DNA of 60,952 nt from Nanobdellota archaeon. GTDB lineage: Archaea; Nanobdellota; Nanobdellia; Woesearchaeales; JAHIVG01. The notes beneath the pieces are model-generated. The model was not told the DNA's origin, searched no databases, and saw only the letters and a program-made list of their open reading frames with translations. Each line of letters starts with the position of its first letter. The stretch's first letter is position 1. Positions 2,928-60,635 of the stretch are shown in pieces. Location: NCBI GenBank assembly GCA_018816705.1, contig JAHIVG010000103.1, positions 1-60,952 on the forward strand. Direction: 5' to 3'. Both the position numbers and the translations under genes were made by a program.

Positions 2928-3058
2928 GCCACTGGACACTGGACATCCACGGATAAGGTATATAAACCAGCCAGAATTCCTTCATAGCACTGCTATAGCA
3001 GCCTTCCCACCCCGCGAGGGGTGCTGAAAGAAAAAGCGAATAGCAAGGAGGGATATAT

Positions 3059-3313: not shown

Positions 3314-3322
3314 GTGAATCAG

Positions 3323-6980: not shown

Positions 6981-7025
6981 TAGAAGGAAAGCTTTAAAAA
7001 CAGCTTTCTTCTCTTCTGCATCGGT

Positions 7026-7175
7026 GGGCCCGTAGCCTAGTCTGGATAAGGCGACAGCCTTCTAAGCTGAGGGTTCAAGTATCAGCTTGGATCCGCTTAA
7101 TAGATCGGGGGTTCGAATAGTTGACGCTTGCGGCAACGGCCGAGAAGCGCAGCTTCGACAGTCCCCCCGGGCTCA
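7026..7175 (+). tRNA. tRNA-Arg(TCT) with two non-canonical introns (7070-7100 at 42/43; 7118-7161 at 59/60)
   Basis: Acceptor GGGCCCG/CGGGCTC, D-stem GCCT/AGGC, anticodon arm ACAGC-CTTCTAA-GCTGT after splicing, T-arm GGGGG-TTCGAAT-CCCCC; TTTAAAAA about 26 nt upstream. Confidence 0.92.
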
Positions 7176-7307
7176 CTTCATTTTCATGAACCGTTACCTT
7201 CATGCCCTTGTGAAATTGGTGATAGTGGCAGTGCGGCACTTGGTTATTCTGCTGTTCTTCAGCAAGAAGAAACCTTTATAAATCCAGCAACACTAATCAA
7301 TAAATAT

Positions 7308-7393
7308 GCGGGGGTGGCCAAGCGGTTTAAGGCGGTCGCCTGCAGAGCGATTATTCGGGGGTTCGAAACCAAGCGAGAGTCCCTCCCCCCGCT
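7308..7393 (+). tRNA. tRNA-Cys(GCA) with a 12-nt T-loop intron (7368-7379)
   Basis: Acceptor GCGGGGG/CCCCCGC, anticodon arm GTCGC-CTGCAGA-GCGAT, T-loop TTCGAA|T restored by removing ACCAAGCGAGAG; TTTATAAA about 26 nt upstream. Confidence 0.92.
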
Positions 7394-7529
7394 CTTTTCT
7401 TTAATTGTACACATGGTTCATATAACCTTAAATGGACATTAGTATCATATTGGAGAACTATTTGAATAGTAACTATACAAAACACTCAATCTAATAAGAT
7501 TTTTAAATAATACCCTATTAAATACAGCC

Positions 7530-8231
7530 ATGAAGAAAAAGCATCTTGAGAAATCTTCTTCCCCCAAGATACTAATCAAAGAAATTAAAAGGTGTAATCG
7601 AAATTTATTTATAATATCACTCTTTATTGCAGTAATATCTGGATTCATTACTTATATTCTGTTAATGACTATTTATGGATTAATTTTTTCTATTTGTGCG
7701 TATGGATTAGTTGGATACTTGCTTTACTTAGTTTATATTAGAAATCTTGATTATAACAAATCTCCAATTATTATTCAAATGAAAAGATTTAGTGAGAATA
7801 AAAAAAATGTCATACTTGAGCTGGTAAAAGAGTTAAATGAGCGCAAGAATAAGATTGAATTTCGAAATGTAATAATTACTTCTTCATGGTTATGCCAAAG
7901 AACATTTTTATTCTTTAAAGTATTTCATTTTAGTCAATTATATTGGGTATATATAAAGAAAACACGACATTATACAAATTTTATCCCTTCAGGAACGACT
8001 TGGGAATTAGTATTCAATTTGTTTGATGGTAAAGATATTATCGGTTACCCAACAAAATCTGGAAATAAAAAGGATTCCGAAACAATTATTGAAGAAATTC
8101 ATAAAAGAGTTCCTTGGGCTTTTTTTGGTTATAGTGATGAGATAAAAAATGAATGGCAAAATAATCCAATAGTAATAATAAATGCGGTCCATGAGAGAAT
8201 ATTAGAAATTCAAGAGCAATTAAAAAAATGA
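7530..8231 (+). CDS. Membrane protein (DUF6709-like) in an AT-rich islet
   Basis: Two TM helices; WVYIKKTRHYTNFIP and VPWAFFGYS motifs recalled for this family. Confidence 0.6.
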   Translation: MKKKHLEKSSSPKILIKEIKRCNRNLFIISLFIAVISGFITYILLMTIYGLIFSICAYGLVGYLLYLVYIRNLDYNKSPIIIQMKRFSENKKNVILELVKELNERKNKIEFRNVIITSSWLCQRTFLFFKVFHFSQLYWVYIKKTRHYTNFIPSGTTWELVFNLFDGKDIIGYPTKSGNKKDSETIIEEIHKRVPWAFFGYSDEIKNEWQNNPIVIINAVHERILEIQEQLKK

Positions 8232-9673
8232 AGAAAAAACCTATCCCTTTGATTGTATTTATACTTATTGGTGGATTTGTGGGTTTGATTATTCATATTA
8301 GCCCCCTTTTATTTGAGATGGATATATTTCGACAATTGACTCTAAAAGAAAGTGGTAGATACCAACCAGAATATATATTTGAATATGATTGTCAAGAATA
8401 TAACTTTTCATTATTGTTATATCAAAGTTATTATGAACATTTTCAATCAAGTAAGAAGCAGGTTTTTTCTTTATCAGATATGGATGAAAATGAATTCTTA
8501 GACAAATATTATGGGATTTTCTTATCTAATAAAATTGATGAAAAAATATTGGATGAAATTATTCAGATCATTCAGGAAGAAATATCTTCGGAGGATAGTG
8601 ATAATGTTGTACTAGCAATAGTTTCTTTTGTCCAGAATTTCGAGTATAATTGTGAAAAAGCAAATAGTTACGAGCTTTTTAACCTTGACCCTTACTATGA
8701 CTTGGAGTATAATACGAATTATCCTTATGAAACTCTGTATCATTCAATTGGTGTTTGCGAAGACACCTCGATTCTGTTAGCCAAGTTATTAATAAAATTG
8801 GGGTATGGTGTTGCCTTATTATATTTTGAAGATGAAAAGCATATGTCCGTTGGATTAGCTTGTGCTGATGAATACTCTAACTATGAATCTGGTTATTGTT
8901 ATATTGAAACAACTCTTCCAAGCCAGATTGGAATTGTACCATATATAGCAAATGAGATTGAGATAAAATCGACTCCAAATATAATTGAAATAGCTGAAGG
9001 AAAAACATTTAATAAAATTACACAAATAAAAAAGCAACAGGAAGAATTGAGCAATGAATATGGACCCGATATTTTGCAATTGGCCAAATGTCAAGAAATA
9101 GAACTACTCAAAGAAATTATACAGTTAGAAAAAGAGCTAGAACCATTTACAACAAAATTAATGAAATATGAAGAGCGAATAAATAAATCCGAAAATAAAG
9201 TTGATTATCAGGAATCAATACTTGATTCATACGACGATCAATATAAAGAGATTGGGATTATGGATACTGATTATCAATGGTCTCTTTATGAATATGATAG
9301 TGCATGTTTCTATATTATCACCGACGAACAATATGCACAGTGTACAAAATTGTACAACAAAGCTGAGGACAAACGACAGGCATTAAATAGCGAAATTGAT
9401 GATTTTAATAGTGGATATTACACAGCATATGAAGAGTATAATACCACGTTAAATGAATATAATAATCTTATTGATGAATATAATGAATTTACAGAGGCAT
9501 ACAATACTCAAATTGAACCATATAATGAAAAAATTGAGATATATAACAATCTATTGTTAGAGTCGTATAAAGAATGTTCTCCTGTAAAATATGAACCTGA
9601 AGAACAGACTACTGTAATAACAGTACACCCAATAGAACCCTCAATTGTGATCTCAGAGGTTAATTCTTATTAG
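8228..9673 (+). CDS. Membrane-anchored transglutaminase-like (Cys-His) protein with a C-terminal coiled coil
   Basis: YPYETL..GVCEDTSILLA..LGY..HMSVGL..YCYIETT; N-terminal TM; YN-rich heptads. Confidence 0.75.
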   Translation: MKKKPIPLIVFILIGGFVGLIIHISPLLFEMDIFRQLTLKESGRYQPEYIFEYDCQEYNFSLLLYQSYYEHFQSSKKQVFSLSDMDENEFLDKYYGIFLSNKIDEKILDEIIQIIQEEISSEDSDNVVLAIVSFVQNFEYNCEKANSYELFNLDPYYDLEYNTNYPYETLYHSIGVCEDTSILLAKLLIKLGYGVALLYFEDEKHMSVGLACADEYSNYESGYCYIETTLPSQIGIVPYIANEIEIKSTPNIIEIAEGKTFNKITQIKKQQEELSNEYGPDILQLAKCQEIELLKEIIQLEKELEPFTTKLMKYEERINKSENKVDYQESILDSYDDQYKEIGIMDTDYQWSLYEYDSACFYIITDEQYAQCTKLYNKAEDKRQALNSEIDDFNSGYYTAYEEYNTTLNEYNNLIDEYNEFTEAYNTQIEPYNEKIEIYNNLLLESYKECSPVKYEPEEQTTVITVHPIEPSIVISEVNSY

Positions 9674-10207
9674 ATCAATAAAAAAAAAGAAAGAAATAAA
9701 TACTAGATAATAATTTAGTGGAATAAAGTTATAATTTAAAAGAGGGTGAAAAAATATTATACTCAACTGAGGAAGCGGATTCTTAGTGTAGCGTCACTTT
9801 GGATTCACTTTCCCTCACTTTTTTCTACCTGACAGTGTACACAAAAAACATAACAATTTTTCTATCTTCTTCCTCGTTGTCAAGTGATCTCTGCTCGATG
9901 AGACGCTACTCAAATGACGGTTTGAGAGAGCTTGAATAATTAAGTGAGGGAAAGCGATGACTACGCTAGTACACATACTAGCCAGAAGTCCTCCAGCCAT
10001 TCTCCTAGCTTTAGGAGGGATTGGTTGGTTGCTTCACATCCAAGGATCTTGGTTACTCTTGGTCCTGGGTGTTGGATTGCAAATACTCTGGCTAGGAAAA
10101 TAGGCAAGTAAAGAAAGATTACAACAGGAACTCGGATTCATTTAATTAGTTGTACTTCTATCATATTTATAAAGTGGATAATTAACTCCCCATATCATCC
10201 ATTTTTC

Positions 10208-11115: not shown

Positions 11116-11832
11116 ATGGGGGTAGTGTTAATCGGGCAGGGAAAGAGCTATCTGGTCAAGGACCCAGCCAAGGCATTCCACACGCAATACGGCTTCATAG
11201 CCCCCGGTATGCTGAAGGAAGGGTGTGATGCAGAGACAAATATGGGCAAGGGCTTTGCTGTCATCAATGCCTCTTTCATCGACTTATACGGCAAGATATC
11301 AAGGAGCCCGCAGATAATTCCGAGAAAGGACATAGGCCTGATAATGGCAGAGACAGGCATCGGCAAGGACAGCCTGGTCATAGATTCCGGGACAGGCTCT
11401 GGCGCATTGTGCTGCATGCTCGCCAGGGTGGCCAAGAAAGTGGTGAGCTATGAGATCAGGCCTGATTTCCTGAACATAGCGGAAAAGAACAAAAAATATT
11501 TAGGCCTGAACAACCTTACCATAAAGGAAGGCGACATATACGACGGCGTACAGGAACGCAACGCTGACCTCCTGACCCTTGACGTGCCGGAGCCGTGGAA
11601 AGCATTGGACACAGCCAGCAAGTGCCTCAAGTCCGGAGGTTTCATCGTATCATACTCACCGAGCGTCCCGCAGGTGATGGACTTCGTCTCGTCTCTCGAC
11701 AAGAGGTTTGTCCATGTCAAGACCTGCGAACTGATCGAACGGGAATGGGAAGTCAACGAGCGCAAGGTCAGGCCCAAGAGCAGAGGCATAGGGCACTCTG
11801 GGTTCTTGACATTCGCGCGCAAGCTGAGGTGA
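11116..11832 (+). CDS. trmI: tRNA (adenine-N1) methyltransferase TrmI
   Basis: HTQYG, PQII.RKDIG, DSGTGSGAL, LDVPEPW, YSPSVPQV, GHSGFL. Confidence 0.92.
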   Translation: MGVVLIGQGKSYLVKDPAKAFHTQYGFIAPGMLKEGCDAETNMGKGFAVINASFIDLYGKISRSPQIIPRKDIGLIMAETGIGKDSLVIDSGTGSGALCCMLARVAKKVVSYEIRPDFLNIAEKNKKYLGLNNLTIKEGDIYDGVQERNADLLTLDVPEPWKALDTASKCLKSGGFIVSYSPSVPQVMDFVSSLDKRFVHVKTCELIEREWEVNERKVRPKSRGIGHSGFLTFARKLR

Positions 11833-11837
11833 AAAAC

Positions 11838-12065
11838 ATGAAAGCCTATGTGTTGGTGACCCTCGAAGGGTCAAACGAGCAGAACGTGTTCAAGAAACTA
11901 GAGTCGCTGAAGGAAGTCAAGGACCTCCACATACTGTTCGGGGAATGGGATGTCATAGCTGAGCTCGAGATAGCCTCCTCTGATGAGCTGGGAGAGTTCG
12001 TCATGAAGAACATAAGGTCCCTGCCAGAGGTCAAGCTCACCAGCACCATGATAGTGGCCAAGTAG
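11838..12065 (+). CDS. Lrp/AsnC ligand-binding-domain protein
   Basis: MKAYVLV..LFGEWDVIAELE..IRSLPEVKLTSTMIV; GAGGTGA site; start moved from 11595 to ATG 11838. Confidence 0.88.
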   Translation: MKAYVLVTLEGSNEQNVFKKLESLKEVKDLHILFGEWDVIAELEIASSDELGEFVMKNIRSLPEVKLTSTMIVAK

Positions 12066-12629
12066 ATGCCCAAGGAAGAGATAAGGGTCCTAGGCATAGA
12101 TGATACGCCCTTCGATAAGTTCAAGGACAAGAGGGCAAAGATAATAGGGGTCCTTTACAGGGGCGGCAAGTTCCTGGACGGAGTTCTTTCGGTCGATGTT
12201 GATGTTGACGGCACCGATGCAACCGCCAAGATAGCCTCGATGGTGAACAATAGCAAGTTCAAGGAGCAGCTCAGGGCTATACTCATGAAAGGCATCGCGG
12301 TTGCCGGCTTCAACATAATCGACATACATGAGCTTTCTGAGAAGACATGCCTGCCGGTCATAGTCGTGATGCGGTCACCTCCGAGATTGAAAGAGATGGT
12401 CTCTGCCCTGAAAAGGTTGGGATACACCGAGCAGCTCGAAAGCCTCGAGAAAGCCGGCAAGATAAACAATGCCGGCAAGGTACTCTTCCAGTGCGCAGGC
12501 TGCACGGAAGATAAGGCTGCCTCAATCATCGAGGTAACGACCACTCACGGCAACATACCTGAACCCCTGAGGGTGGCGCACCTTATTGCTGGCGGAATAA
12601 CCAAAGGAGAGAGCAGGGGACGGGCCTGA
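12066..12629 (+). CDS. DUF99 family (endonuclease V-like) protein
   Basis: RVLGIDD, DGTDAT, GIAVAGFNIID, IPEPLRVAHLIA. Confidence 0.9.
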   Translation: MPKEEIRVLGIDDTPFDKFKDKRAKIIGVLYRGGKFLDGVLSVDVDVDGTDATAKIASMVNNSKFKEQLRAILMKGIAVAGFNIIDIHELSEKTCLPVIVVMRSPPRLKEMVSALKRLGYTEQLESLEKAGKINNAGKVLFQCAGCTEDKAASIIEVTTTHGNIPEPLRVAHLIAGGITKGESRGRA

Positions 12630-12781
12630 AATTCTGGAAGGATTGCCGGAAAAAATATTGCCACAACACTTCTTTGCGATAGGATTTGCGGGACGAGGGA
12701 TGATTTATCCGGTCCACGGCCCAGGATTTCCGGATTTGCCTCGAAAAGACGTATAAAGGATTTTGACCGCTGCCTTGGACG

Positions 12782-21536: not shown

Positions 21537-22181
21537 ATGCCGATATCTGAGAATATTGATAGGATAAGGGAACGCATCGGTTCTTCTGCGGAAATGACTG
21601 GCCGCAACCCGTCTTCTGTCAGGCTTATGGCTGTCACGAAGCTTTCGACAGTTGAGCAGATGATGGAAGCGATTTCTTGTGGGATTGATTTGATCGGAGA
21701 GAACCGCGTGCAGAATGCTGCGGAGAAGTTCCCTTCTCTCCCAGCTGTCGAGAAGCACATGATAGGCCACCTGCAGACCAACAAGGTGGGGAAGGCAGTT
21801 GAACTGTTCGACTGCATACAGAGCCTTGATTCGTTGAAGCTGGCCAAAGAGATAGATAAGAGGGCGAAAGATATAGGAAAGGTCATGCCTGTCTTCATCG
21901 AGGTGAATCCTGATGAGGAATCGAAGCATGGAGTGAGGCTAGATGAGGTCGCCGGTTTTTATGGCAAGGTCGTGAAGCTTACGAACGTAAAGGTCATAGG
22001 ACTCATGGCTCTCGCCCCTTATGTGCCAGCTGAGGAGACCAGGCCGTTCTTCAAGAGAATCTCATCGCTCAACAAGAAGCTTGGGCTGAAAGAGCTGTCC
22101 ATCGGCATGACAAATGACTTCGAGGTCGCTATCGAAGAAGGCTCAACGCTTCTTAGGCTTGGAAGAGCCATCTTTGGCTGA
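21537..22181 (+). CDS. YggS family PLP-binding protein
   Basis: LMAVTK, GENRVQ, HMIGHLQTNK, LSIGMTNDFEVAIEEGSTLLRLGRAIFG. Confidence 0.95.
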   Translation: MPISENIDRIRERIGSSAEMTGRNPSSVRLMAVTKLSTVEQMMEAISCGIDLIGENRVQNAAEKFPSLPAVEKHMIGHLQTNKVGKAVELFDCIQSLDSLKLAKEIDKRAKDIGKVMPVFIEVNPDEESKHGVRLDEVAGFYGKVVKLTNVKVIGLMALAPYVPAEETRPFFKRISSLNKKLGLKELSIGMTNDFEVAIEEGSTLLRLGRAIFG

Positions 22182-23453
22182 GCCTCTCCTTCTCGCGTAG
22201 GATACAGGGTTCTTTATCCTCTCACAGAGGTTGTCAGGGTGGCATAACCTCAGGTCCTGGTAGAACGAGCGGCAGTTCGGAGGGAGGATCTTCTGCTTCC
22301 TGGACTTGTGATAACGCAGATGGCCCTTTATCATGACAGGGCGGAGATGCTGCGGGTTCTTCTTGTTCCACTCATCAATCCTCTTCTCCATCAGGTCGTA
22401 ATCCCAGCCGCAGCACGTCATGAAGTTGGTCAGGGCGAAGAGGAAGCGCTTCTTTCCGTCCTGCATGCCCTTGAAGCCGTGCTTGATGCACGGGGGAAAA
22501 CATAGTTCAGGTATGGCCTGCTCGGGGAGCTCGTACTCCTTGTGCTCGGCCTTGTCTTCGGGCAGCTCAGGCGCGTGGTCAAATGCTGCAATAAGCAGGT
22601 CCCTTGCCTCACCTGAAGAGGCCTTGCGCCCGAGGAAGGCTGTGCCGCCAAATTCCTTAGGTCCCTCGGCCATGTCCTTGGTGAATGAATCTATCTTCTT
22701 CGGGTCGATGGGGATGCTCAGCAACCCTGATTTCTCGTTGAAGGAATATGACATGCGATAGAGATGCCTGCTCGATATGAGTATGGTGTCTATGTTGAGG
22801 AAGGGTTCCACGTCTAGGTATGGGATGTCTGTGCCCATGGAATCCTGCTTGAAGGCCTGGACCTCCTTGGATGTCTTGCCCGTCTTCTTCAGTATGTTGG
22901 TGAGGCTGTCAGCTTCGAGGATGAGCTCGCCGAGCTTGGGCTTGATCATGACCTGTAGGTACATCGCTGTCCTCCTCGCGGCCTCTGGGAATAAGAGATA
23001 CGTATCATCTTTGCCGATCCTCTTGGGAAACGCCTCGTAAGGGATGCCGATGTGAAAACCCTTATTGCCGGAGAACTTGCATGATATCGACGATATCCCA
23101 TGATGCTTCAAGGCCCCTATGACCAGCTTTGCGGCAATCTTCGAATAATCCAGGATTGCACAGTCGATGTCCAGCACGAGGTCCCAGCCGATCCTCAACT
23201 GGTCCATGTCATGCTTGGACATCTCCGTGGACAGTTGGAGTGGGTTGGACCAGCGCTCCTCAGAGGCGTGGAAGGAGGTTGCGCCCTTCTTGGCCAATTC
23301 CAGTACGTCAGCAGGGTTGCGGAGCACGTCAGGTCGCTTGCCGAAGTAATTCGAGAACTTCACAGCGATCTCCTTGTCCCTGGCCTCCTCCACCAGGGCC
23401 TCCTGGATGGGCTTCTGCTTATAATGGCGGAGCAGGATGGACTTGTGTATCAT
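22143..23453 (-). CDS. Fused DNA primase small + large subunit (PriS-PriL)
   Basis: GWDLVLDID and KFSGNKGFHI (PriS) joined to FPPCI..DGKKR..PPNC..C..C (PriL Fe-S domain); start set at MIHKS (23453). Confidence 0.9.
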   Translation of the reverse strand: MIHKSILLRHYKQKPIQEALVEEARDKEIAVKFSNYFGKRPDVLRNPADVLELAKKGATSFHASEERWSNPLQLSTEMSKHDMDQLRIGWDLVLDIDCAILDYSKIAAKLVIGALKHHGISSISCKFSGNKGFHIGIPYEAFPKRIGKDDTYLLFPEAARRTAMYLQVMIKPKLGELILEADSLTNILKKTGKTSKEVQAFKQDSMGTDIPYLDVEPFLNIDTILISSRHLYRMSYSFNEKSGLLSIPIDPKKIDSFTKDMAEGPKEFGGTAFLGRKASSGEARDLLIAAFDHAPELPEDKAEHKEYELPEQAIPELCFPPCIKHGFKGMQDGKKRFLFALTNFMTCCGWDYDLMEKRIDEWNKKNPQHLRPVMIKGHLRYHKSRKQKILPPNCRSFYQDLRLCHPDNLCERIKNPVSYARRRGSAKDGSSKPKKR

Positions 23454-23511
23454 GGAAAAGGATATAAGAGGGTTGTTTTTATTAGTTTTGATAAAGTGAT
23501 GTCGTTGCCTC

Positions 23512-23877
23512 GTGAAAATGGACACCCTCACCGATTGGGTAGAATCCCTGAAAGAATCTAAGAAAGCGATCGTAGTCGAAGGCAAGAAGGATGTGAGGGC
23601 CTTGGCTGCGTTCGGGATAGAGGCCTTTCCGATCGAGGGGCGCTCGGTCCTGGAGGCAGCCGAAGCGATCGCTGCCAAATCCGAGGACTGCGTCATCCTC
23701 ACAGACCTTGACAAGGAGGGAAGGAGGCTCTACAGCATGCTCAAGCATTATCTATCGCAGATGGGTGTGAGGATAGACAACAAGTTCAGGGAATGGCTGT
23801 TCAGGGAGACCAAGCTGCGGCAGATCGAGGGATTAGTAAGCTATTTGGAGTCTCTAACTGACAGGCTGCCTGAGTGA
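23512..23877 (+). CDS. Toprim domain protein
   Basis: IVVEGKKD, ILTDLDKEG, IEGL. Confidence 0.9.
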   Translation: MKMDTLTDWVESLKESKKAIVVEGKKDVRALAAFGIEAFPIEGRSVLEAAEAIAAKSEDCVILTDLDKEGRRLYSMLKHYLSQMGVRIDNKFREWLFRETKLRQIEGLVSYLESLTDRLPE

Positions 23878-29191: not shown

Positions 29192-31006
29192 TCATTCCAC
29201 CGTCACAGATTTTGCCAGGTTGCGGGGCTTATCGATATCGCAGCCGCGCAGGTCAGCGATATGGTAAGCGAGCAGCTGAAGCGGGATCACCGTGAGGAAC
29301 GGCGAGACGAGCTCGTGCACCTTGGGGATGGTTATCTTGTGGGCTACAAGCCTGTCCAGTGCAGGGTCTTCCTGGGATACGACCGCGATTATCTTGCCGC
29401 CCCTGGCCTTGACCTCTTCCATGTTGCTGAGGATCTTCTCATAGGCACCGCTCTTGGGCGCGACGAAGACCACGGGCATCTTCTCATCTATGAGTGCTAT
29501 GGGACCATGCTTCATCTCTGCTGCCGGGTAGCCCTCGGCGTGCATGTAGGATATCTCCTTCAGCTTGAGAGCACCCTCTAATGCCACTGGATAGTTCAGA
29601 CCACGACCCAAATATAGGAAGTTGTTGCCCTCGAAATAAGACTCAGCAATCTTCCTTATCTCCTTACTCTTCTTCAGTATCTCTGCCATGTGTTTAGGCA
29701 CCAGGTTGATATGGTGCTGAAGCTCCCTCGCCTTAGCAGGGGTTATCTGCCCTCTCTCGAGGGCAACCAGGATTATGAAGAGGTACATTGCGGCGAGCTG
29801 GGATGTGAAGGCCTTGGTGCTCGCAACCCCTATCTCAGGGCCTGCATGCAGATATATACCCCCTCCTGTCTCCCTTGCTATGGAGCTGCCGACGACGTTG
29901 ATGATGCCGAGGGTCTTGGCCCCTTTCTTCTTGGCCTCTCTGAGGGCGGCCAAGGTGTCTGCTGTCTCGCCAGACTGGCTCACGACGATTACGAGGTCAT
30001 TCTCATCCACGATGGGGTTGCGGTAGCGGAACTCGGAAGCATACTCCACCTCTGTGGGAATACATGCTATCTCTTCGAAGAGGTACTCTGCGATGAGGGC
30101 CGCGTGCCAGGACGTGCCGCAGGCCGTGATTATCACCCTGCGCATCTTCTTGAGGAAGCCCTTACCCAAATAATCCAGGCCTCCGAAGTGAGGGCCCTCG
30201 TCGGTGATCCTGCCCCTGAGGGTGTTCTCCATGCTTTCGGGCTGCCCCATTATCTCTTTCAGCATGAAATGCCTAAAGCCACCCTTCTCTATCTCCTCGA
30301 TGCTCCAGGTTATCCTGTCCTCCTTCTTGTTCAGCTTCTTCTTGTCCTGGGTCATGACGCTGTAGCCGTCCCTTGTTATGAAGGCCATGTCCCCGTCGTC
30401 CAGGTAGACGACTTTCTTGGTGTAAGGCACGATGGGTGAGGCATCGCTGGCGATGAAGAACTCATGGTCGCCCAGGCCAATCATCAGTGGGGAACCGTTC
30501 CTGGCTGCAAGCAGCCTGTCTTCGTCCTTGTGCATGACCAGCAGGCCGTAAGTGCCCCTTACCTGGGCGAGGGCCCGCCTTGTGGCCTCTGCGAGGTCCC
30601 CGTGGTAATAGTGGCAGACAAGGTTGGCAATGACCTCTGAATCCGTATCAGAGCTAAAGGAGTAACCCTTCTTGATAAGTTTGGCCTTGAGCTTTGCATA
30701 GTTCTCGACGATGCCGTTATGGACGATGGCGATGTTACCGAAACAGCTTATGTGGGGGTGGGCATTCTTCTGCGTTACCTCTCCGTGCGTGGCCCACCTC
30801 GTGTGGCCGATGCCTACGGTGCCTTTGCCGAGCTTGAAATCCTTGACCTCCCCTATCTGGCCCACGTGCTTCGACAACAGCAATCCTTTGTCGCTCCTGA
30901 TGGTGACGCCCCAGGAATCATAACCGCGGTATTCGAGCTGCTTCAGGCCGTTGATGATTATACTGTCCGCGTCCTTGGTCCCGATGTAGCCGAATATTCC
31001 GCACAT
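29192..31006 (-). CDS. glmS: Glutamine--fructose-6-phosphate aminotransferase
   Basis: MCGIFG, LEYRGYDS, GHTRWATHG, SQSGETADT, PRNLAKSVTVE. Confidence 0.98.
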   Translation of the reverse strand: MCGIFGYIGTKDADSIIINGLKQLEYRGYDSWGVTIRSDKGLLLSKHVGQIGEVKDFKLGKGTVGIGHTRWATHGEVTQKNAHPHISCFGNIAIVHNGIVENYAKLKAKLIKKGYSFSSDTDSEVIANLVCHYYHGDLAEATRRALAQVRGTYGLLVMHKDEDRLLAARNGSPLMIGLGDHEFFIASDASPIVPYTKKVVYLDDGDMAFITRDGYSVMTQDKKKLNKKEDRITWSIEEIEKGGFRHFMLKEIMGQPESMENTLRGRITDEGPHFGGLDYLGKGFLKKMRRVIITACGTSWHAALIAEYLFEEIACIPTEVEYASEFRYRNPIVDENDLVIVVSQSGETADTLAALREAKKKGAKTLGIINVVGSSIARETGGGIYLHAGPEIGVASTKAFTSQLAAMYLFIILVALERGQITPAKARELQHHINLVPKHMAEILKKSKEIRKIAESYFEGNNFLYLGRGLNYPVALEGALKLKEISYMHAEGYPAAEMKHGPIALIDEKMPVVFVAPKSGAYEKILSNMEEVKARGGKIIAVVSQEDPALDRLVAHKITIPKVHELVSPFLTVIPLQLLAYHIADLRGCDIDKPRNLAKSVTVE

Positions 31007-31007
31007 G

Positions 31008-31691
31008 TTATCGCCCTAGGAAGGCCTCGATCTCAGGGATGTCTGAGGGCTGGCCGAGGTCGAGCCAGTAGTCGTGCAAAACCTTGATCTTGACCTTATT
31101 CTTGGCTGCAAGGGCTGTCAATGCGTCTGTGAGCTCGAGCTCGCCACGGGGAGAAGGCTTAAGCCCCTTGAGGGCAGGGAATATCTCCTTGGTGAGCTTG
31201 TACAGCCCAGTATTGATCAGGTTTGAAGGAGGGTGCTTGGGTTTCTCCAATATCTTCAACAGCCGCTCGCCATCAACCTGCAGCACGCCGTACTTTCCCG
31301 GATTGTCCACCTCCTTGGCTGCCATATACATGAATCTGTCGTCGATAAGCATCAGCCTCATGTCATCCGGGGACCACAGGTTGTCAGCTCCCACGACGAT
31401 GAAACCGCCCTTGACATGCTTCTCTGCCAGCAAGACAGCCTCTGCTGTGCCGCCTGGCTTGTCCTGTTCTATGAACTCGGCGTCAATGCTTTCCTCTGCG
31501 AAGAAATCTTTGATCTGTTCGCCCAGGTGTCCTATGACGACGACAAAGGATGTTATGCCGGCCTCCTGGAGGTTGCTGACCAAGTAAGAAAGGAAGGGCC
31601 TGCCCCCTATAGGGATGAGGCATTTCGGAACCTTGTCTGTGAGAGGACGCATCCTCACACCACTGCCGGCTGCGAGTATAACTGCTTTCAT
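31008..31691 (-). CDS. Sugar-phosphate nucleotidyltransferase
   Basis: AVILAAGSGVRMRPLT..PK, SPRGELELTDA, WLDLG. Confidence 0.92.
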   Translation of the reverse strand: MKAVILAAGSGVRMRPLTDKVPKCLIPIGGRPFLSYLVSNLQEAGITSFVVVIGHLGEQIKDFFAEESIDAEFIEQDKPGGTAEAVLLAEKHVKGGFIVVGADNLWSPDDMRLMLIDDRFMYMAAKEVDNPGKYGVLQVDGERLLKILEKPKHPPSNLINTGLYKLTKEIFPALKGLKPSPRGELELTDALTALAAKNKVKIKVLHDYWLDLGQPSDIPEIEAFLGR

Positions 31692-31863
31692 AGCTCAGCG
31701 GGATAACTCAGGGGGTTTATTAATTTTATTAAAAACTGATTCATAATTGACCATACATCGACGGGAAAATAAAGGGGTTGTTTTATAGAAAATGATAATA
31801 ATATTATGAATTGATTCATAATATTCGAAAGATTTTTATAATCCGATCACTCTCACTTTTCGC

Positions 31864-31992
31864 ATGAACGCGAGGGATTTCGTCTACGTCGACCCTAAAG
31901 ACAAGTGGAACTGGATTCTCGGCGCACTCGCAATATTCCTGCTCTGGTGGGGGCTGAAGACCATATTAAGAAGTCTCACTTTAGCATCATGA
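31864..31992 (+). CDS. Small membrane protein (42 aa) missing from the ORF track
   Basis: MNARDFVYVDPKDKWNWILGALAIFLLWWGLKTILRSLTLAS; TATA at about 31832; ATGA overlap with the next gene. Confidence 0.65.
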   Translation: MNARDFVYVDPKDKWNWILGALAIFLLWWGLKTILRSLTLAS

Positions 31993-32912
31993 AGAACGAT
32001 CACTACGTACTGCGAAGGGGAAACAAGCTCGAATACTGTGAAGCTGGACTGATCACCCCTGAGAACGCCCTCCTGCTAAGCCATCCTATAAGGCTGCAGA
32101 TACTCAGGCTGCTGGCCAAGAGGGAGATGTACCCTGCAGAGATAGCGTCGACGATCGGCGTGCACGAGCAGAAGGTATACTACCACATAAGGCAGCTTAT
32201 GAATGCAGGAATGCTCACTATCTACGAACGCAGCGAGATAAGGGGGACTGTGGCCAAGAGATACAAGGCTACAAGCCTCAACTTCTGCCTCAGCCTGGGA
32301 GGGGAATGGCAGAACGCCAGGAAGCTGCTATCGACCAAGAAAGAGAAGCTAAGCTATCTCTCACCCTTCATAGAGGGGACTGAGTTCAACTCGACATTCG
32401 TCGTCGGCAGCCCGGACCCGCACGGCCCGCACAAAGCAAGGGCGAGGGACTCCCACTATGCTGTTGAACTGGCCTTGTTCCTAGGCAACTACTGCTCTAC
32501 CAAGTCTCACTTTTCCACTATGCTGGACGTCGACATGAACATGAAGACTGATCCAGGCAATCTCATACTCGTCGGGGGGCCTGTCACGAACCTGCTCGTC
32601 GACTCGGTGAACAAGGCCTTGCCAGTGAGATTCAGCAAGAAGAAGCCTTGGGAACTGGTGTCCTCCACCACAGGGAAGAAGTACACCGAGGAGACCACAG
32701 GCATAGTGGCCAGGATACCTAATCCAGGATCAGACAGCCTCCTGCTCGTATTGGCAGGCATAAGGGCAGCAGGCACGAAATCAGCTGTCCTTGCAGTGAC
32801 GACCAACAAGGCGTTCAAGGACTTCAAGGGTGAGGAAAGCTATTGCAGGGTCGTGAACGGATTCGACCTGGACGGCGACGGGAGGGTGGACAATGTCGAG
32901 ATACTCGAATAG
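31989..32912 (+). CDS. ArsR-type HTH regulator with a C-terminal alpha/beta (S-layer-like) domain
   Basis: HPIRLQILRLL..YPAEIA..EQKVYYHIRQL; VVGSPDPHG, NLILVGGPVTN, GFDLDGDG. Confidence 0.85.
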   Translation: MKNDHYVLRRGNKLEYCEAGLITPENALLLSHPIRLQILRLLAKREMYPAEIASTIGVHEQKVYYHIRQLMNAGMLTIYERSEIRGTVAKRYKATSLNFCLSLGGEWQNARKLLSTKKEKLSYLSPFIEGTEFNSTFVVGSPDPHGPHKARARDSHYAVELALFLGNYCSTKSHFSTMLDVDMNMKTDPGNLILVGGPVTNLLVDSVNKALPVRFSKKKPWELVSSTTGKKYTEETTGIVARIPNPGSDSLLLVLAGIRAAGTKSAVLAVTTNKAFKDFKGEESYCRVVNGFDLDGDGRVDNVEILE

Positions 32913-33011
32913 GTCTCACTTTTTACGAATACCGATCAGGATTCCAACTAGTAACTTTCATTCAGCCCATATAAGGGCGATTTTCGACTTAATAGGGGAA
33001 GAGGTGGAATA

Positions 33012-33671
33012 ATGCTCTGGATCTTCAGAAAAAGCCGATTTGAGGCCCTATCGAGGCGTATAGACACTGCCTTAGGGGGTATGGAGAAGGACATCTACAG
33101 CCTCCAGGACTGGATAAGGCACCTCCATGACCGGGACGAGGGGCTTAAGAAGTCCCACCAGGAGCATATAGTCCTCACCAAGAGGGACATCACCCACCTC
33201 AACTCCTGGATAAAGTACCTCTACAAGCATATGTCGACGCTGCACGGCAGCATGAAGCAGCTCGGCGAAGGCCTGGAAGACATCAGGAAGACCAATGAAG
33301 AGATGTCTAAGAAGCTTAAGGAGATCGAGTCTAACTCTCACTTTTTACCTGTACAACCTAGGGCTCAGCTCAAGGCCCAGCCTATGGCTCATAAGCCTGG
33401 ATCCGGGCCTGTCTTAGCTGATCTCACCCTCCATGATGTCGGTGAGCTCTCACCTTCGGAGAAGGCGCTCATCATGGTGCTGTACACAGAACCAATACCA
33501 TCAAGCTATCATTCCATCGCCTCGAAATTGGGTTTGAATTACACAACTGTCAAGAACCTCATGTATAAGGCCAAGAAGAAGGGCTTTGTCATCAAGAGCC
33601 GGCTGAATGAGGATGGGGAAAAGGAATTCTACCTTGACAAGGCCATGCGGATCAAGGTATCCGGAAGATAA
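33012..33671 (+). CDS. Coiled-coil plus C-terminal winged-HTH DNA-binding protein
   Basis: Heptad N-terminal half; LSPSEKALIMVL..SYHSIASKLGLNYTTVKNLMYKAKKKG..EKEFYL; GAGGTGG site. Confidence 0.8.
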   Translation: MLWIFRKSRFEALSRRIDTALGGMEKDIYSLQDWIRHLHDRDEGLKKSHQEHIVLTKRDITHLNSWIKYLYKHMSTLHGSMKQLGEGLEDIRKTNEEMSKKLKEIESNSHFLPVQPRAQLKAQPMAHKPGSGPVLADLTLHDVGELSPSEKALIMVLYTEPIPSSYHSIASKLGLNYTTVKNLMYKAKKKGFVIKSRLNEDGEKEFYLDKAMRIKVSGR

Positions 33672-33690
33672 ACGGGGGATAAATAGGGGT

Positions 33691-33967
33691 GTGACACGTG
33701 TCACGGGTGTGTCACACTAGTGACATAGACGACAAACTGGTTATTGAGTGACACATCACTTGTGACGTGTCACTGTGTCACTTACCTGGTGTCACATGTG
33801 TGACACATCGATGACATCGACGGTAAACAAGCTCGACTTAACAAGCAGAAGATATGTGGATCCGGGCTTGTTCGTGGGATTTCCGGAAGTGACACACGTG
33901 TGTCACACTAGTGACATAGACGACAAACTGGGAAAACGGTGACACACGTCACGGGTGGAGTGACACA
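33691..33967. repeat. Array of about 16 GTGAC(AC)/(GT)GTCAC units with a 34-bp exact direct repeat
   Basis: GTGTGTCACACTAGTGACATAGACGACAAACTGG at 33707-33740 and 33898-33931; palindrome GTGACACGTGTCAC at 33691. Confidence 0.92.
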
Positions 33968-34470
33968 GAGTTTTCGAGAATTTTCTTGAGAATCTGCCTG
34001 GCGATCGCTCGCGAGGGGGTCTTGGAGGAGTCGGCTGTGAGGACCTTGAAGCCTGATTCCTCTGCTTCGTTCCCGCAGATATCAAGGTTCTCACATTCCA
34101 GGTTCTCCTTGATCTTCTCAGCAGAGTATTTCCTCTCCTCGAGGCGCCTCTTGAGGATGGCTGGAGAGCAGTGCAGGACTATACAGAAGTCGAACAGTGA
34201 GGGATCCATCACCTGGCTGAGGTGACCCTCGACGATGACTGACTTATCATCTTCCCTGGCCTTCTTCAGGATAGGGCCTAAACGCTCATTAAGGCTCTTA
34301 GAATCGACTATCTGACAGTCCCTCTGTTCATCATATCCCTCTGAGAGATCATGCTCCTTTATGAAGGCTGTAAGCCCTATCAGATGGCATCCTAGTAAAA
34401 GTGAGAGTTCCTTAGCTAATTCACTCTTGCCGGTGCCCGGCGTACCTGTGATGGCCAATATGAATCGCAT
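33949..34470 (-). CDS. Adenylate kinase, AK6/Fap7 type
   Basis: ITGTPGTGKS, VIVEGHLS, RRLEERKYSAEKIKEN; start set at MRFIL (34470). Confidence 0.9.
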   Translation of the reverse strand: MRFILAITGTPGTGKSELAKELSLLLGCHLIGLTAFIKEHDLSEGYDEQRDCQIVDSKSLNERLGPILKKAREDDKSVIVEGHLSQVMDPSLFDFCIVLHCSPAILKRRLEERKYSAEKIKENLECENLDICGNEAEESGFKVLTADSSKTPSRAIARQILKKILENSVSLHP

Positions 34471-34501
34471 GAGCCGATGCGGTGAAGTGACATTTATAAA
34501 A

Positions 34502-35116
34502 CTATGCTCGGCGCCTGACAAGCCAGGTGGCCAGCAAAGCCACTATGACCACTGCTCCACCGACGAGAAACCATATGACCGGCTCGGGGACGAGGGCTGA
34601 TCTGACTGTCTCCACAGCCTCGGGAATAGGGGCAGCTGCTAGGTCTGGAACGGCCTCTGCCATAGGCTGGGCAGCCTCTTTAGCCATGTCTGCAGACCCG
34701 GCCAGCGTCTTGAACACCGCAGGCCTCTTGAAGAATGCCAGGATGCCTGCTCCGACGACCAGTGCGGCGATGGACGGGAGGATGTGCCTTATCTTGACAG
34801 AGACACCTTCCTTGGTGTCAGGGGTGATGACTATGAACTTGTTGGCGAGGGTGTAATGGTTGACCTCCTTGCCCTTCTTGCTGTAGTGGAACTCCTCGAC
34901 GTTGACGAGCTTTGCAGCGAGGAGCTGCTGGAGGTTGTAATGCACAGTGGATAGGGGTATGTCCAGCTCCTTGGCGATCCCGGTCTCGGTAGCGTCCTTC
35001 TCAGCGAGGTGATCCAGTATCTTCCTGCATGTCTCGCTCGAGATGACGTTCGCAAGCTTCTTCGCCTTGTCCTCCTTCATCGAGACCAGCACAAAGGTCT
35101 CATTCTTCTTCTTCAT
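34502..35116 (-). CDS. ArsR-type HTH regulator with two C-terminal TM helices
   Basis: TCRKILDHL..TETGIAKELDIPLSTVHYNLQQL; two hydrophobic segments. Confidence 0.85.
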   Translation of the reverse strand: MKKKNETFVLVSMKEDKAKKLANVISSETCRKILDHLAEKDATETGIAKELDIPLSTVHYNLQQLLAAKLVNVEEFHYSKKGKEVNHYTLANKFIVITPDTKEGVSVKIRHILPSIAALVVGAGILAFFKRPAVFKTLAGSADMAKEAAQPMAEAVPDLAAAPIPEAVETVRSALVPEPVIWFLVGGAVVIVALLATWLVRRRA

Positions 35117-35206
35117 GGGAAGTGTATGGTATCTTGCTTATTTAAAGGTTGTCAAGGGTTCAAAGCGGGTTGAAGCGATAGCTATATAAGTGCAGGATGG
35201 CTTCTG

Positions 35207-35614
35207 GTGCGCATGGCAGTCATAACCGTTTCCACATCGAAGAGATACGAGCTGGTCGACGTGACTGAGGATGTGAGGGTTATAGTCAAGGAATCAGGTG
35301 TCAAAGAAGGGCTGTGCAATGTCTATGCTCCCCATGCCACTGCTGCCATCACGATCAACGAGAACGCGGACCCGAACATACGGGATGACATATCAGATGC
35401 CTTAAGCCAGCTCATCAAGGAGGGCTGCTGGAGGCATGACAGGATCGACAACAACGCGGCCTCGCACATAAAGGCGGCCATAGTCGGGGCCAGCGAGACC
35501 ATACCTATCGTCAACGGAGAGCTGGCCATGGGCACATGGCAGGACATATTCATCTGCGACTTCGACGGGCCAAGGACGAGAAAAGTTATCGTCACAGTGC
35601 TGCCCAAAAGCTGA
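35207..35614 (+). CDS. YjbQ/UPF0047 family protein
   Basis: PHATAAITINENADP, NAASHIK, GTWQDIFICDFDGPR. Confidence 0.93.
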   Translation: MRMAVITVSTSKRYELVDVTEDVRVIVKESGVKEGLCNVYAPHATAAITINENADPNIRDDISDALSQLIKEGCWRHDRIDNNAASHIKAAIVGASETIPIVNGELAMGTWQDIFICDFDGPRTRKVIVTVLPKS

Positions 35615-41823: not shown

Positions 41824-42441
41824 CTAGCCCAACTGGAAGCCTGTCTGGGTGATGACGAATCGCTTTGTCAACCCTTCTTTAAGCGAGCGGTGCTTCCTCA
41901 GAGTCGCCACCCTGGAATCCGTGTCCTTGGAGAGTTCCAGCAAGCACTTGCTGCTGTAGCTTATCAAATCCCCACCGACGGGAAGGACCTCCTCTTTCGA
42001 GAACGGCGAGTAGACATGGTCAGTGAGCAAAGCCGGTATCTTAGCCTTCCTCGCAATCTTCCAGACCAGGCCGAGCTGGAGGGCCATGGCCCTGTTGACA
42101 GCCGCAGGGTCCTTTGTGCCTGCGAGCTCTAAGCGGTAGAGCATGGCGACCGAATCCAGGGCCAGCATGCCCATCCTCGGTGTCTGCCTGTACAGCATGG
42201 TCAGCTGCCGTTGCAGCTCCTGGAAAGACCTCGGCCTGAGCAATGACATGTCGATCCTTCCCAGCTGCCTAAGGCGGTCGGCAGACACGCCGTTCTCAGT
42301 GTCGATGAAGACAGTCTTCCTCTGTCCTGACAGGGATTGGGCTGCGAGCAGGCAGTAGTTGGTCTTCCCCGTGCCAGACGGCCCGTACACCGTGGTGAGC
42401 ACTCCCGGTTCAAGATTCATCATGCCTAACGGATCCTTCAT
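41824..42441 (-). CDS. radB: DNA repair protein RadB
   Basis: YGPSGTGKTN, FIDTE, LDS..LYRLE, KHRS motif. Confidence 0.9.
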   Translation of the reverse strand: MKDPLGMMNLEPGVLTTVYGPSGTGKTNYCLLAAQSLSGQRKTVFIDTENGVSADRLRQLGRIDMSLLRPRSFQELQRQLTMLYRQTPRMGMLALDSVAMLYRLELAGTKDPAAVNRAMALQLGLVWKIARKAKIPALLTDHVYSPFSKEEVLPVGGDLISYSSKCLLELSKDTDSRVATLRKHRSLKEGLTKRFVITQTGFQLG

Positions 42442-57871: not shown

Positions 57872-58249
57872 ATGTTAACCCTACAATTCATACCTTATGC
57901 AGAGATTCAGGGGCTGAGCTCCGGCAGGAGGACAAAGAAGCTCCTCGACGCAGCGAAGCAGAACAAGATAGTGCTTCTCCAGGGCAGGCTGACAAAGCAG
58001 GAAGAAGCAGACCTGATACAGAAGACCATGGAGCAGATAGACGACAAGTTCAAGGGGATAGAGCTCTCCGTGATCGCGCCCGGCAACATGGACGGCGCAT
58101 GGCATGAGAAGGTCAAGCAGCAGCTGCTGAGCCTGCTGATGGGCGACAGGGAAGGCTTCACCATCATAGGCCCCGCGACGATAGTCAAGGAGATAAGGAA
58201 AGACCCACACAAGATACAGCTCCTGATGAAGGACAAGAGGAAAAGATAA
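57872..58249 (+). CDS. DUF2073 (OapB/ArvB) protein
   Basis: IVLLQGRL..EEADLIQKTM..FKGIE..TIIGPA. Confidence 0.88.
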   Translation: MLTLQFIPYAEIQGLSSGRRTKKLLDAAKQNKIVLLQGRLTKQEEADLIQKTMEQIDDKFKGIELSVIAPGNMDGAWHEKVKQQLLSLLMGDREGFTIIGPATIVKEIRKDPHKIQLLMKDKRKR

Positions 58250-58623
58250 TGCCCCACCAATGCGTGAGATGCAACAAGTTCTACACAGATGGTGCTGAGG
58301 AGATCCTGAAAGGGTGCACGTGCGGCGGCAGGCTGTTCTTCTACGTCAAGAAGGATTCTCTTGACAAGCTCAAGAAGGAGACTGTAAAGCTCTCTGACAG
58401 CCAGAAGAAGGAGATCGAAAAGGATGCCTTTGAGCTCGTGGGCGCGGACATAAACAGCGACGAGCCCATAGTGCTGGATTTCGAGAGCATAAGGATAATG
58501 AAGCCTGGCAGCTACCAGATAGACCTCGTGAACCTCTTCAGTAAACAACCGCTGATCTACAAGCTGGAGGAAGGCAAGTACATGATCGACCTGCCAGAGA
58601 CCTTCAAGAACATCAAAGAGTAA
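58249..58623 (+). CDS. DUF2072 Zn-ribbon (OapC/ArvC) protein
   Basis: MPHQCVRC..ILKGCTCGGRLFFYV..ESIRI..PGSYQIDL. Confidence 0.9.
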   Translation: MPHQCVRCNKFYTDGAEEILKGCTCGGRLFFYVKKDSLDKLKKETVKLSDSQKKEIEKDAFELVGADINSDEPIVLDFESIRIMKPGSYQIDLVNLFSKQPLIYKLEEGKYMIDLPETFKNIKE

Positions 58624-59246: not shown

Positions 59247-59357
59247 GTTCTGGGAAAAATATATAAACCGCCTTTAAATACTCGACCGCGTGCCTCCGTA
59301 GTACACTCAGAAATCATAAAAATGATTTCTTCGTAACTACGGATGCTCGCTTCGCTC

Positions 59358-59430
59358 GCCTCCGTAGCATAGTAGCTATTGCGTGGGACTTGTAATCCCA
59401 AGGTCGTGGGTGCGAATCCCACCGGAGGCT
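59358..59430 (+). tRNA. tRNA-Thr(TGT)
   Basis: Acceptor GCCTCCG/CGGAGGC, anticodon arm TGGGA-CTTGTAA-TCCCA, T-arm GTGGG-TGCGAAT-CCCAC. Confidence 0.93.
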
Positions 59431-59822
59431 GTCAAGAACCACTGGTCATAGACTGGTGGTGTGTATGTAAGTGACCATACCAATGGGTGTGGTTCTTGAC
59501 TTACGAATGTAACCAGTGGATTCACTGCTAGTGAAGACGCTGGTGGAATGAGTGTATTCAATATCCTGGCGGCAATCAATCTCACGACAATTGCGGACTT
59601 CTTGATAATTGTTTACATCTGTACGACAAGGCGATAGTTCGCAAAATACGTCTAAGGGGAACCTTATCTGAAGGTAGGGCTAAAGGATAACAATTGTCCA
59701 TACAAAATCTATGGTAACCCGGCACGGCAGGAGGGTCTATTTCCCTAACTAAGTCAAATAACCACTACTGAGTGGTCAAAAAACCGAAAGATTTAAATAG
59801 TGAGCTTCATTTCATCAAAACC

Positions 59823-60635
59823 ATGGAAGAAGGGTCATCTGCTTCAAAACTTGAAGCCGAACTTAACCGGGAAAGAGCAGGGAGATTGCGTGATAGTTAT
59901 GACGGACCAATTAGCTTTCTTTCTTCAGTTTTTGAAAAATTCAGAACACCTGAGTTAGAATCTTATCAACTCAACAGGCTAATTTTGGGTCGGGGAGGAA
60001 TTGGTGAAGTTGCTGCCCGAATTGCTGAGGTCACAAAACGTGTTAAGAGCTACACACCCACAGATAATGAAGATACTTTGGCCTATATACAAAACCTTGC
60101 TTCGTTTCTTATTGAAGAACAACATTACTTTTTGGCCCACACGCCCGATTCCGCTGTTGAAGAGGCTGCTTCAATTCTACGCGATTATGCAAAGAGATGC
60201 AAAGAACAGTTGCCAACTCACCCTGATGAAGACACACCAAGTCTTATTGGTTATATTCAGCTTCTAGAACCTGCAGATTATAAACCTGCTGACGATCCTC
60301 AGATGAAAATTTTTAAAGATGAACATGCACAGCCTCTTGTTAACCGTGTTAGGGACACCCTATTAACTGATAATCTTGACTGGACTGCAAGAGTAAACCA
60401 AATCGCTAAATATATTGAAGAAACCGTTCCAAATCCTCCCTGGGGATCCAATCCCGAATTATATTTCATTTGGGGAGTGCAGGCGATTCTAGACAGAGAT
60501 GTTAAAATCGGGCATCTAAACGGATTAGTCGCAAAAGGAGAATTCGATCATTCATCATTAAACAAGCTTTCTGAAGCCATAGAAACATATCATACAAAAC
60601 ATAAAAAAATTACTGCAGATCATCCCTTTTTTTAA
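59823..60635 (+). CDS. Orphan helical hypothetical protein in AT-rich DNA
   Basis: Long ORF; GAAAGATTTAAATA promoter favours a leaderless ATG at 59823. Confidence 0.65.
   Translation: MEEGSSASKLEAELNRERAGRLRDSYDGPISFLSSVFEKFRTPELESYQLNRLILGRGGIGEVAARIAEVTKRVKSYTPTDNEDTLAYIQNLASFLIEEQHYFLAHTPDSAVEEAASILRDYAKRCKEQLPTHPDEDTPSLIGYIQLLEPADYKPADDPQMKIFKDEHAQPLVNRVRDTLLTDNLDWTARVNQIAKYIEETVPNPPWGSNPELYFIWGVQAILDRDVKIGHLNGLVAKGEFDHSSLNKLSEAIETYHTKHKKITADHPFF

Follow-up and report, generated by a model that had tools for sequence, protein, structure and literature searches.

What makes a short DNA word change strand at one point of a genome? We asked this of a 60,952-bp stretch from a Nanobdellota archaeon of the order Woesearchaeales (contig JAHIVG010000103.1 of assembly GCA_018816705.1; contig C35 in our numbering and hereafter the window), in which copies of the 10-mer TCTCACTTTT face, from both sides, an array of GTGACAC repeats (iterons) next to a gene of a coiled-coil plus winged-helix protein family that we call cc-wHTH. 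A first-pass annotation had read these copies as oriented binding sites like origin boxes, KOPS or Ter. We find that clusters of the box go with cc-wHTH genes, each of which has an iteron array of its own, and that boxes inside genes are under DNA-level selection.

A word search bore out every copy that the annotation had claimed. Exact TCTCACTTTT occurs five times in the window, at 31851, 32505, 32914 and 33336 on the plus strand and at 34397 on the minus strand, where 0.17 copies would be expected, and none of 100 dinucleotide-preserving shuffles got to five. The single additional one-mismatch copy at the locus, TCTCACTTTA at 31974 on the plus strand, matches 9 of 10 positions. Together these copies span 2.6 kb, with the plus copies left and the minus copy right of the array; the three nearest the array run on as T(T)AC, as had been noticed, and no further exact copy lies within the window, in line with the remark that no full copy was seen elsewhere. 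In the whole assembly (1,738,914 bp in 114 contigs), TCTCACTTTT occurs nine times, including the five found here, and the reversed control word five times; 6 of 13 genomic copies of TCTCACTTT fall at this locus. Mapped across the genome, the word is clustered and its polarity flips here, and an even spread without a switch was not seen.

Alignment of 77-89 sites yielded a 13-bp asymmetric consensus, AAC(T)CTCACTTTT, whose most strongly conserved part is AACTCTCAC; a variant, CTCACTTTC, occurs in one relative (G027; relatives carry G numbers). Within 45 nt on either side of the box we found neither a conserved dyad or direct-repeat partner nor a TATA-like signal at a fixed distance, and on the latter ground the box was rejected as a promoter element.

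A profile of the cc-wHTH protein detected the family in 29 of 41 genomes of the order and did not find it in 12. The 30 cc-wHTH loci of these 29 genomes (105,155 bp) contain 91 boxes, while the reversed control word occurs only twice, and boxes are present at 24 of the loci. The ArsR-like gene of the locus served as a comparison in public genomes, some of which are the same as those under our G handles. A cc-wHTH gene lies next door in 11 of 80 ArsR-like loci, and all 11 carry CTCACTTTT (37 copies in total), whereas 60 of the 69 loci without such a neighbour have no box. The ArsR-like gene, which is widespread in archaea, is therefore not tied to the boxes in its own right and was ruled out as their organiser. 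Within the family, the window gene belongs to the A-type, while B-type genes usually adjoin a METTL5-like methyltransferase gene. Boxes occur in 8 of 9 methyltransferase genes next to a B-type gene (17 antisense, 0 sense), compared with 1 of 14 without a family neighbour, in which the protein motifs are still present.

Chance, or conserved S-H-F or K-S-E peptides with the boxes as a by-product, might be invoked instead, since three window copies are coding and certain peptide contexts are conserved. We give this explanation practically no weight. It is contradicted by the shuffles and by the methyltransferase genes, whose motifs remain where the boxes are missing; further, copies lie in three reading frames, in sense and antisense, and also in non-coding DNA, and the box codons are rare ones. 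The copies at 32505 and 33336 do encode S-H-F through TCT-CAC-TTT, with T-ending codons uncommon in window genes, as the annotation had pointed out: in 27 genes of the window, 19% of Phe codons are TTT and 15% of Ser codons are TCT. The copy at 34397 uses TTA, which accounts for 5% of Leu codons in the same genes.

In G002, from another genus of the same taxonomic family, four boxes are homologous to those at 32505, 32914, 33336 and 34397, strand switch included. The cc-wHTH genes of the two genomes share 59% nucleotide identity, and their second longest identical run (12 nt) falls on the box at 33336, in the same codon position. In the kinase gene that carries the copy at 34397 (55% identity), the longest identical run (11 nt) falls on the box, and in the ArsR-like gene (66%) the 11-nt run at 32505 is one of several equal ones. 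The box at 32505 also has a homologous copy in G001.

The strand switch across the array, which recurs at the orthologous locus of G002, is a general property. When the array is located automatically, from whichever 7-mer recurs most often in a 300-bp window, 77 boxes in 23 genomes point toward it, 9 point away and 3 lie inside; all boxes face inward in 16 of the 23 genomes, and a majority faces away in G024 alone. Relative to the A- or B-type gene (25 box-carrying loci; five box-free loci excluded), 52 upstream boxes have the orientation of the gene and 4 the opposite one, compared with 5 and 3 inside the gene and 5 and 22 downstream of it. Inward polarity holds whatever sense the host gene has. 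The initial idea of oriented sites stands as far as the non-palindromic box and its polarity switch are concerned; its comparison with KOPS and Ter fails, and that with origin boxes is weakened.

KOPS and Ter/Tus sites are alike in being asymmetric words with a strand flip at a defined point. KOPS occur often and all over the genome, and Ter sites extend across the terminus, whereas the word described here is rare and local (nine exact copies in 1.74 Mb, five of them within 2.6 kb), and neither FtsK/Tus-type logic nor a terminus position is found. Therefore, KOPS were ruled out, the copies not being replichore-wide, and so was a Ter/Tus fork trap, given a cluster of 1-3 kb and no skew maximum there in G041 or G018, two relatives with complete chromosomes.

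Around the boxes, A/T content averaged over 87 sites oscillates at 10.5 bp outward from the box, with the greatest strength over some 50 bp toward the array and a visible signal to about 120 bp. Periodogram power was 0.257. In 200 control sets of positions drawn at random from these loci, power averaged 0.009 and peaked at 0.037, and none reached the observed value. The phases are coherent (Rayleigh p ~3e-13 over 87 sites), and the phasing survives leave-one-locus-out. It is present both at A-type loci, where 25 sites give a best period of 11.0 and a power of 0.18 (control maximum 0.105), and at B-type or other loci, where 62 sites give a power of 0.34 (control maximum 0.062). Additionally, spacings between same-strand neighbours favour multiples of 10.5 bp (n = 43, R = 0.35, p ~0.006 uncorrected for the 8 periods tried), some of these spacings being homologous between genomes. 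Such phasing of A/T is a signature of bent or wrapped DNA, here anchored on the box.

The array toward which the boxes point is equally local. Its 12 half-sites are drawn from 67 copies of GTGACAC/GTGTCAC in the genome and form the sole genomic cluster of at least four. Many half-sites pair as palindromes, some of them perfect (GTGTCAC immediately after GTGACAC), and a unit of 58 nt occurs twice, at 33698-33755 and 33889-33946, with 84% identity. Every A- or B-type gene has an array of short repeats close by; such arrays lie beside family genes in 23 genomes and differ in their unit by lineage: GTGACAC in this genome, G002 and G038, a GAGGACA-type unit in G021, G032 and G004, and ATTCCCA, AGTCCCA or TGGGACA with the B-type genes of 10 genomes. 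The unit tracks the protein subtype, with GNGACA-type repeats at A-type genes and (A/T)(G/T)TCCCA-type repeats at B-type genes, where they reach right to the gene's own TATA box; the box is invariant. Because repeat unit and protein subtype co-vary, we infer that the iterons are read by the adjacent A- or B-type protein.

Two further observations concern the repeats. The last repeats of the window array extend into the 3' end of the kinase open reading frame (ORF), and a GTGACA-type half-site lies between a TATA-like element and the ATG of the kinase gene (~34476-34486).

Table 1. Positions of the boxes, iterons and genes at the window locus and at the second module on contig C111 (HTH, helix-turn-helix).
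Feature	Contig	Position	Strand	Remarks
Box 1, CACTCTCACTTTT	window	31848-31860	+	between TATA-like TTTTTATAA (31833-31841) and ATG 31864 of the 42-aa ORF; operator-type position
Box 2, AAGTCTCACTTTA	window	31971-31983	+	one core mismatch; after ATATTAA (31963-31969) and 5 nt before ATG 31989; also within the 3' end of the 42-aa ORF
Box 3, AAGTCTCACTTTT	window	32502-32514	+	in the ArsR-like gene, sense; encodes K-S-H-F-S
Box 4, AGGTCTCACTTTT	window	32911-32923	+	97 nt before the ATG of the cc-wHTH gene; overlaps the final two bases of the ArsR-like stop codon (32910-12), the 10-mer beginning one base later; 17-mer common to a box on C111
Box 5, AACTCTCACTTTT	window	33333-33345	+	full consensus; in the cc-wHTH gene; encodes N-S-H-F-L
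Box 6	window	34397-34409	-	full consensus; in the kinase gene, 64 nt past its start; encodes L-S-L-L
42-aa ORF	window	31864-31992	+	hydrophobic stretch; stop overlaps the ATG of the gene at 31989; no match in family search
ArsR-type HTH gene	window	31989-32912	+	307 aa; HTH_20, 3.4e-12; conserved C-terminal domain
cc-wHTH gene, A-type	window	33012-33671	+	219 aa; weak HTH match
Central iteron array	window	33691-33966		12 GTGACAC/GTGTCAC half-sites, between the stop codons of two convergent genes (cc-wHTH and kinase)
Small P-loop kinase gene	window	33949-34470	-	AAA_18, 7e-27; NCBIfam PRK03839 'putative kinase', under the model cut-off
Plus boxes	C111	near 1704 and 1897	+	the first degenerate
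Lowest-GC 200 bp of the assembly	C111	~2060-2260		17% G+C
Iterons GTCGGGAT/TCCCGAC	C111	2340-2790
D-type gene	C111	2918-3397	-	highly conserved HTH protein, 159 aa; 15 of 41 genomes
AT-rich tract	C111	3400-3760		ATTCGGCA-type repeats
Minus boxes	C111	3786, 4010, 4042	-	followed by the C-type gene and a METTL5-like methyltransferase gene
C-type gene	C111	4064-4576		cc-wHTH paralogue; 34 of 41 genomes

The predicted structure of the 219-aa A-type protein [AlphaFold2; mean predicted local distance difference test score (pLDDT) 82.8] has one helix over residues 2-109 and a winged helix at 148-217, joined by a linker of low confidence (112-140), and a Foldseek search matched the winged helix to MarR-family regulators (MepR, 3eco_A, E 1.7e-4). 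The protein, with its MarR-like winged helix, is the putative reader of the iterons beside its gene. Searches of NCBIfam and Pfam turned up no curated family for it, just weak matches to HTH or coiled-coil models, a profile search of the PDB returned coiled-coil noise, and the ESM Atlas returned 'hypothetical / HTH_11' clusters from Nanobdellota. Genes flanking the modules code for the ArsR-like HTH protein, the small kinase and an HTH/transmembrane protein, and in relatives for the methyltransferase, RpoL and AMMECR1.

A second, smaller box-bracketed module lies at 1690-4100 on contig C111 (locus L036; Table 1), and its layout and iteron are also found in G041 and G024. In this genome and in G041 the order is box, AT-rich tract, TCCCGAC-type iterons with the D-type gene, AT-rich tract and inverted box. 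On the complete chromosome of G041, the lowest-GC (9.5%) and third-lowest-GC 200-bp windows are inside the box cluster.

More box clusters, with alternating strands, were seen at loci L078 (~11800-12750) and L047 (9045-9373), the latter with a head-to-head inverted pair. No cc-wHTH gene was detected in the part of either locus examined.

We favour, with an even chance of being right, a reading in which the boxes dock protein in one orientation and, jointly with the central iterons, bring the locus into a wrapped complex with a regulatory role. Dimers of the cc-wHTH protein would sit on the iterons, and a second factor, conserved across the order, would bind every asymmetric box in one orientation; judged by neighbourhood and distribution, the best candidate for the latter is the near-universal C-type paralogue encoded on C111. 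Helically phased A/T tracts beside each box would bend the flanking DNA inward, so that the 2.6-kb locus may fold or loop onto the array. The likeliest output would be control over transcription of the module itself and of its neighbours. The bound proteins, the looping and the regulatory outcome are the parts of this reading that we infer.

A regulatory role is easiest to picture at boxes 1 and 2, the two of six that overlap a core promoter (TATA to start); the remaining four lie away from promoters. A protein bound to these two boxes would block RNA polymerase and, if the mRNAs are leaderless as their spacing suggests, would cover about -18 to -5. Operators between TATA and the transcription start are typical of archaeal repressors, as for MDR1, Phr and TrmB. 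Boxes 1 and 2 occupy the equivalent interval, as do boxes of G028 and G032, which precede the ATG of the ArsR-like gene by 8-9 nt and follow an A/T-rich TATA-like sequence, and the adjacent proteins have winged helices of the MarR/ArsR type. The operator that the annotation had suggested at 31851 is plausible in its position between TATA and ATG, but the box is asymmetric and has no dyad. Unlike such operators, moreover, the boxes are mostly intragenic and far from promoters, take their polarity from a distant array and have practically no further targets in the genome.

To the left of box 1, a divergent promoter region (31721-31836) holds two 27-nt repeats containing TGATTCATAAT, and there is a 23-nt near-palindrome at 31789-31836; these may be another operator.

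Several points weigh against a wrapped regulatory complex. The window array sits between convergent genes, where there is no promoter, and in relatives the array is 5' or 3' of the gene; this variable position and the convergent setting fit an autonomous DNA element better than a plain operator. About one or two target loci per genome are unusual for a transcription-factor regulon, and the sister modules, which contain the most AT-rich 200 bp of two genomes, point toward DNA melting. In some genomes the C-type gene occurs without exact boxes nearby, and its candidacy as box reader draws on neighbourhood and conservation only. Since the related genomes are not independent of one another, pooled counts overstate significance, and the automatically picked arrays may be wrong in a few genomes (G005, G016, G024 and G028).

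Transcription could also be affected in another way, if the boxes were polar terminators or insulators whose T-run ends transcripts heading toward the array and so shields the module on both sides. Inward boxes present CTCACUUUU(U) to incoming polymerases, box 4 stands directly after a stop codon and has T5, and the antisense copies in methyltransferase genes would spare the sense mRNA. A plain T-run terminator has no need of the conserved AACTCTCAC, however, and only four T are fixed in the box, with T at position +9 in 36-44% of sites (0.12 bit). Boxes 3, 5 and 6 are sense-oriented within genes that they would cut short, transcription probably starts downstream of boxes 1 and 2, and in G028 the box after the same stop codon is inverted. 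Five tandem boxes antisense in a gene without a nearby upstream same-strand promoter are also hard to justify. We consider this explanation very unlikely.

A motif acting in sense RNA was dropped because boxes occur on both sense and antisense strands and are inverted at the same position in G028. A search of 31000-35500 against Rfam at a permissive E-value gave one chance-level match to a long non-coding RNA only.

The arrangement could instead mark a secondary origin or origin-like element specified by the winged-helix protein without an adjacent Orc1/Cdc6, with the boxes as polar origin recognition boxes (ORBs) facing a loading or melting zone. We think this unlikely, and hold it no more probable that the iterons of such an element would be bound by a dedicated initiator or regulator. 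Excerpts of PMC12141716 and PMC5333045 describe polar inverted ORBs that flank an AT-rich element at Sulfolobus oriC1, and those of PMC12141716 also give a precedent for origins set by distinct initiators, including the non-Orc WhiP. As far as these excerpts go, archaeal origins resemble our modules in their non-palindromic boxes of one orientation inverted around a centre and in the DNA-binding protein gene that adjoins the element. They also resemble the modules of C111 and G041 in particular, whose centres include the most AT-rich DNA of the genome. Here, in contrast, the boxes extend over 1-3 kb and often lie in coding DNA, and the window centre consists of iterons of ~50% G+C (33-34 kb) without an AT-rich tract, and therefore offers no AT-rich unwinding element. 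The box is presumably also unlike the ORB consensus.

The position of the modules in the chromosome bears on the same question. In four genomes a module shares its contig with an orc1/cdc6 gene at a distance of 32-45 kb, which would favour an origin: G002 (41 kb), G021 (45 kb), G009 (32 kb) and G024 (40 kb for the C/D module; the B module is 132 kb away). The gene is never adjacent, however, and its distance is about 320 kb in G041 and about 329 kb in G018. In G041, cumulative purine excess and gene orientation turn at ~480-500 kb (orc1 at 468 kb) and at ~860-880 kb, and the cluster at 787.5-789.8 kb is on a slope, not at a turning point; GC skew is weak and noisy. In G018, sampled at 40 x 20 kb over the first 866 kb and 10 x 10 kb over the rest (sparse in the last third), the GC-skew minimum is at ~690 kb (orc1 at 765 kb), with the module mid-slope at 437 kb. 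The failure to find the family in 12 of the 41 genomes and the presence of at least two modules per genome also speak against an origin. Thus, the origin reading loses weight through the separation of the clusters from orc1/cdc6 and through the missing skew switch in the two complete relatives. It is kept as a minority rival because, in two genomes, no DNA is more AT-rich than that within the sister modules. Around orc1 itself, ORB-like 9-mers (an approximate query) formed no cluster in G041, and no repeats were seen within the ~3-kb loci of five relatives, which carries little weight. A literature search on Woesearchaeota replication origins yielded nothing relevant.

Within this genome Cdc6_C has a single match, in the one orc1/cdc6 gene of the assembly, which starts at the very edge of contig C9 (1-1178), so the canonical origin may lie in or near an assembly gap beyond the window. 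The window is rich in replication genes (RPA, RadA, primase, OapB, OapC), a further point in favour of an origin. OapB and OapC genes are at 57872-58623, followed by tRNA-Thr (59358-59430) and a perfect 12-nt inverted repeat (59431-59442 / 59489-59500); 59287-59560 also has CCAGTGG/CCACTGG/CTGGTGG words. Weak PriS and PriL matches in a 523-aa ORF (22143-23714) suggest a fused primase, and RPA-like, RadA, RadB-like and EndoMS/NucS-type genes are present (1944-4270, 12066-12629, 41824-42441). Elsewhere in the window, a low-GC island at 7000-10000 (30-36% vs ~50%) with DUF6709-like and transglutaminase-like genes may be acquired DNA, and a 287-aa ORF without family match (59772-60635), in lower-GC DNA just downstream of tRNA-Thr, could mark the border of an integrated element.

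A centromere-like or chromosome-organising site would also bring together a DNA-binding protein and its own repeats. The cc-wHTH protein would then bridge or anchor DNA at the array, and the phased boxes would shape a wrapped complex of the 'segrosome' type, by a logic like that of plasmid ParR-parC, RacA-ram and MatP-matS. This fits the single copy of array and boxes per genome, the gene adjoining its repeats, the long coiled coil with a DNA-binding head, the wrapping suggested by the 10.5-bp phasing and the loose linkage to orc1 in several genomes. No ParA/SegA-like partition NTPase was found beside the modules inspected, however, the adjacent P-loop protein being of the small kinase type, and roughly one genome in four yielded no member of the family; we regard such a site as improbable.

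Plasmid Rep-iteron and ParR-parC systems, too, have a unique short-repeat array by a winged-helix gene with a unit that varies with the protein lineage, and the phased DNA suggests wrapping in the same manner. Our modules differ from them in being chromosomal, order-wide and beside housekeeping genes, in the added layer of invariant, outward-lying polar boxes, and in having no Rep, helicase or partition ATPase among the neighbours. Taking the two kinds of element together, we see some, though clearly the smaller, prospect that the modules are autonomous DPANN chromosomal elements, either winged-helix-fired origins without Orc1 adjacency or centromere-like anchors. That their polar boxes would dock a conserved factor, with the flanks wrapped toward a lineage-specific iteron core, we consider similarly doubtful.

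Oriented boxes around a core, and iterons beside the gene of their binding protein, are known design principles; the box and the cc-wHTH family appear to be undescribed. In the literature excerpts retrieved we found no description of either, and CTCACTTTT searched together with archaea led to primers and unrelated text.

DPANN archaea cannot be grown alone, and their cis-regulatory and chromosome-maintenance signals are almost unknown. For one order, a precise element can now be given, made up of a 13-bp polar box, an inward rule, phased flanks, lineage-specific iterons and the cc-wHTH family, and it is directly testable with recombinant proteins and synthetic DNA. With boxes set in coding DNA against codon preference and on either strand, it is also a clear case of overlapping DNA- and protein-level selection. 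If it is an origin or centromere-like, the replicators or segregation sites of archaea would gain a new type; if it is regulatory, it would be a compact switch of several interacting HTH proteins, conserved over many families.

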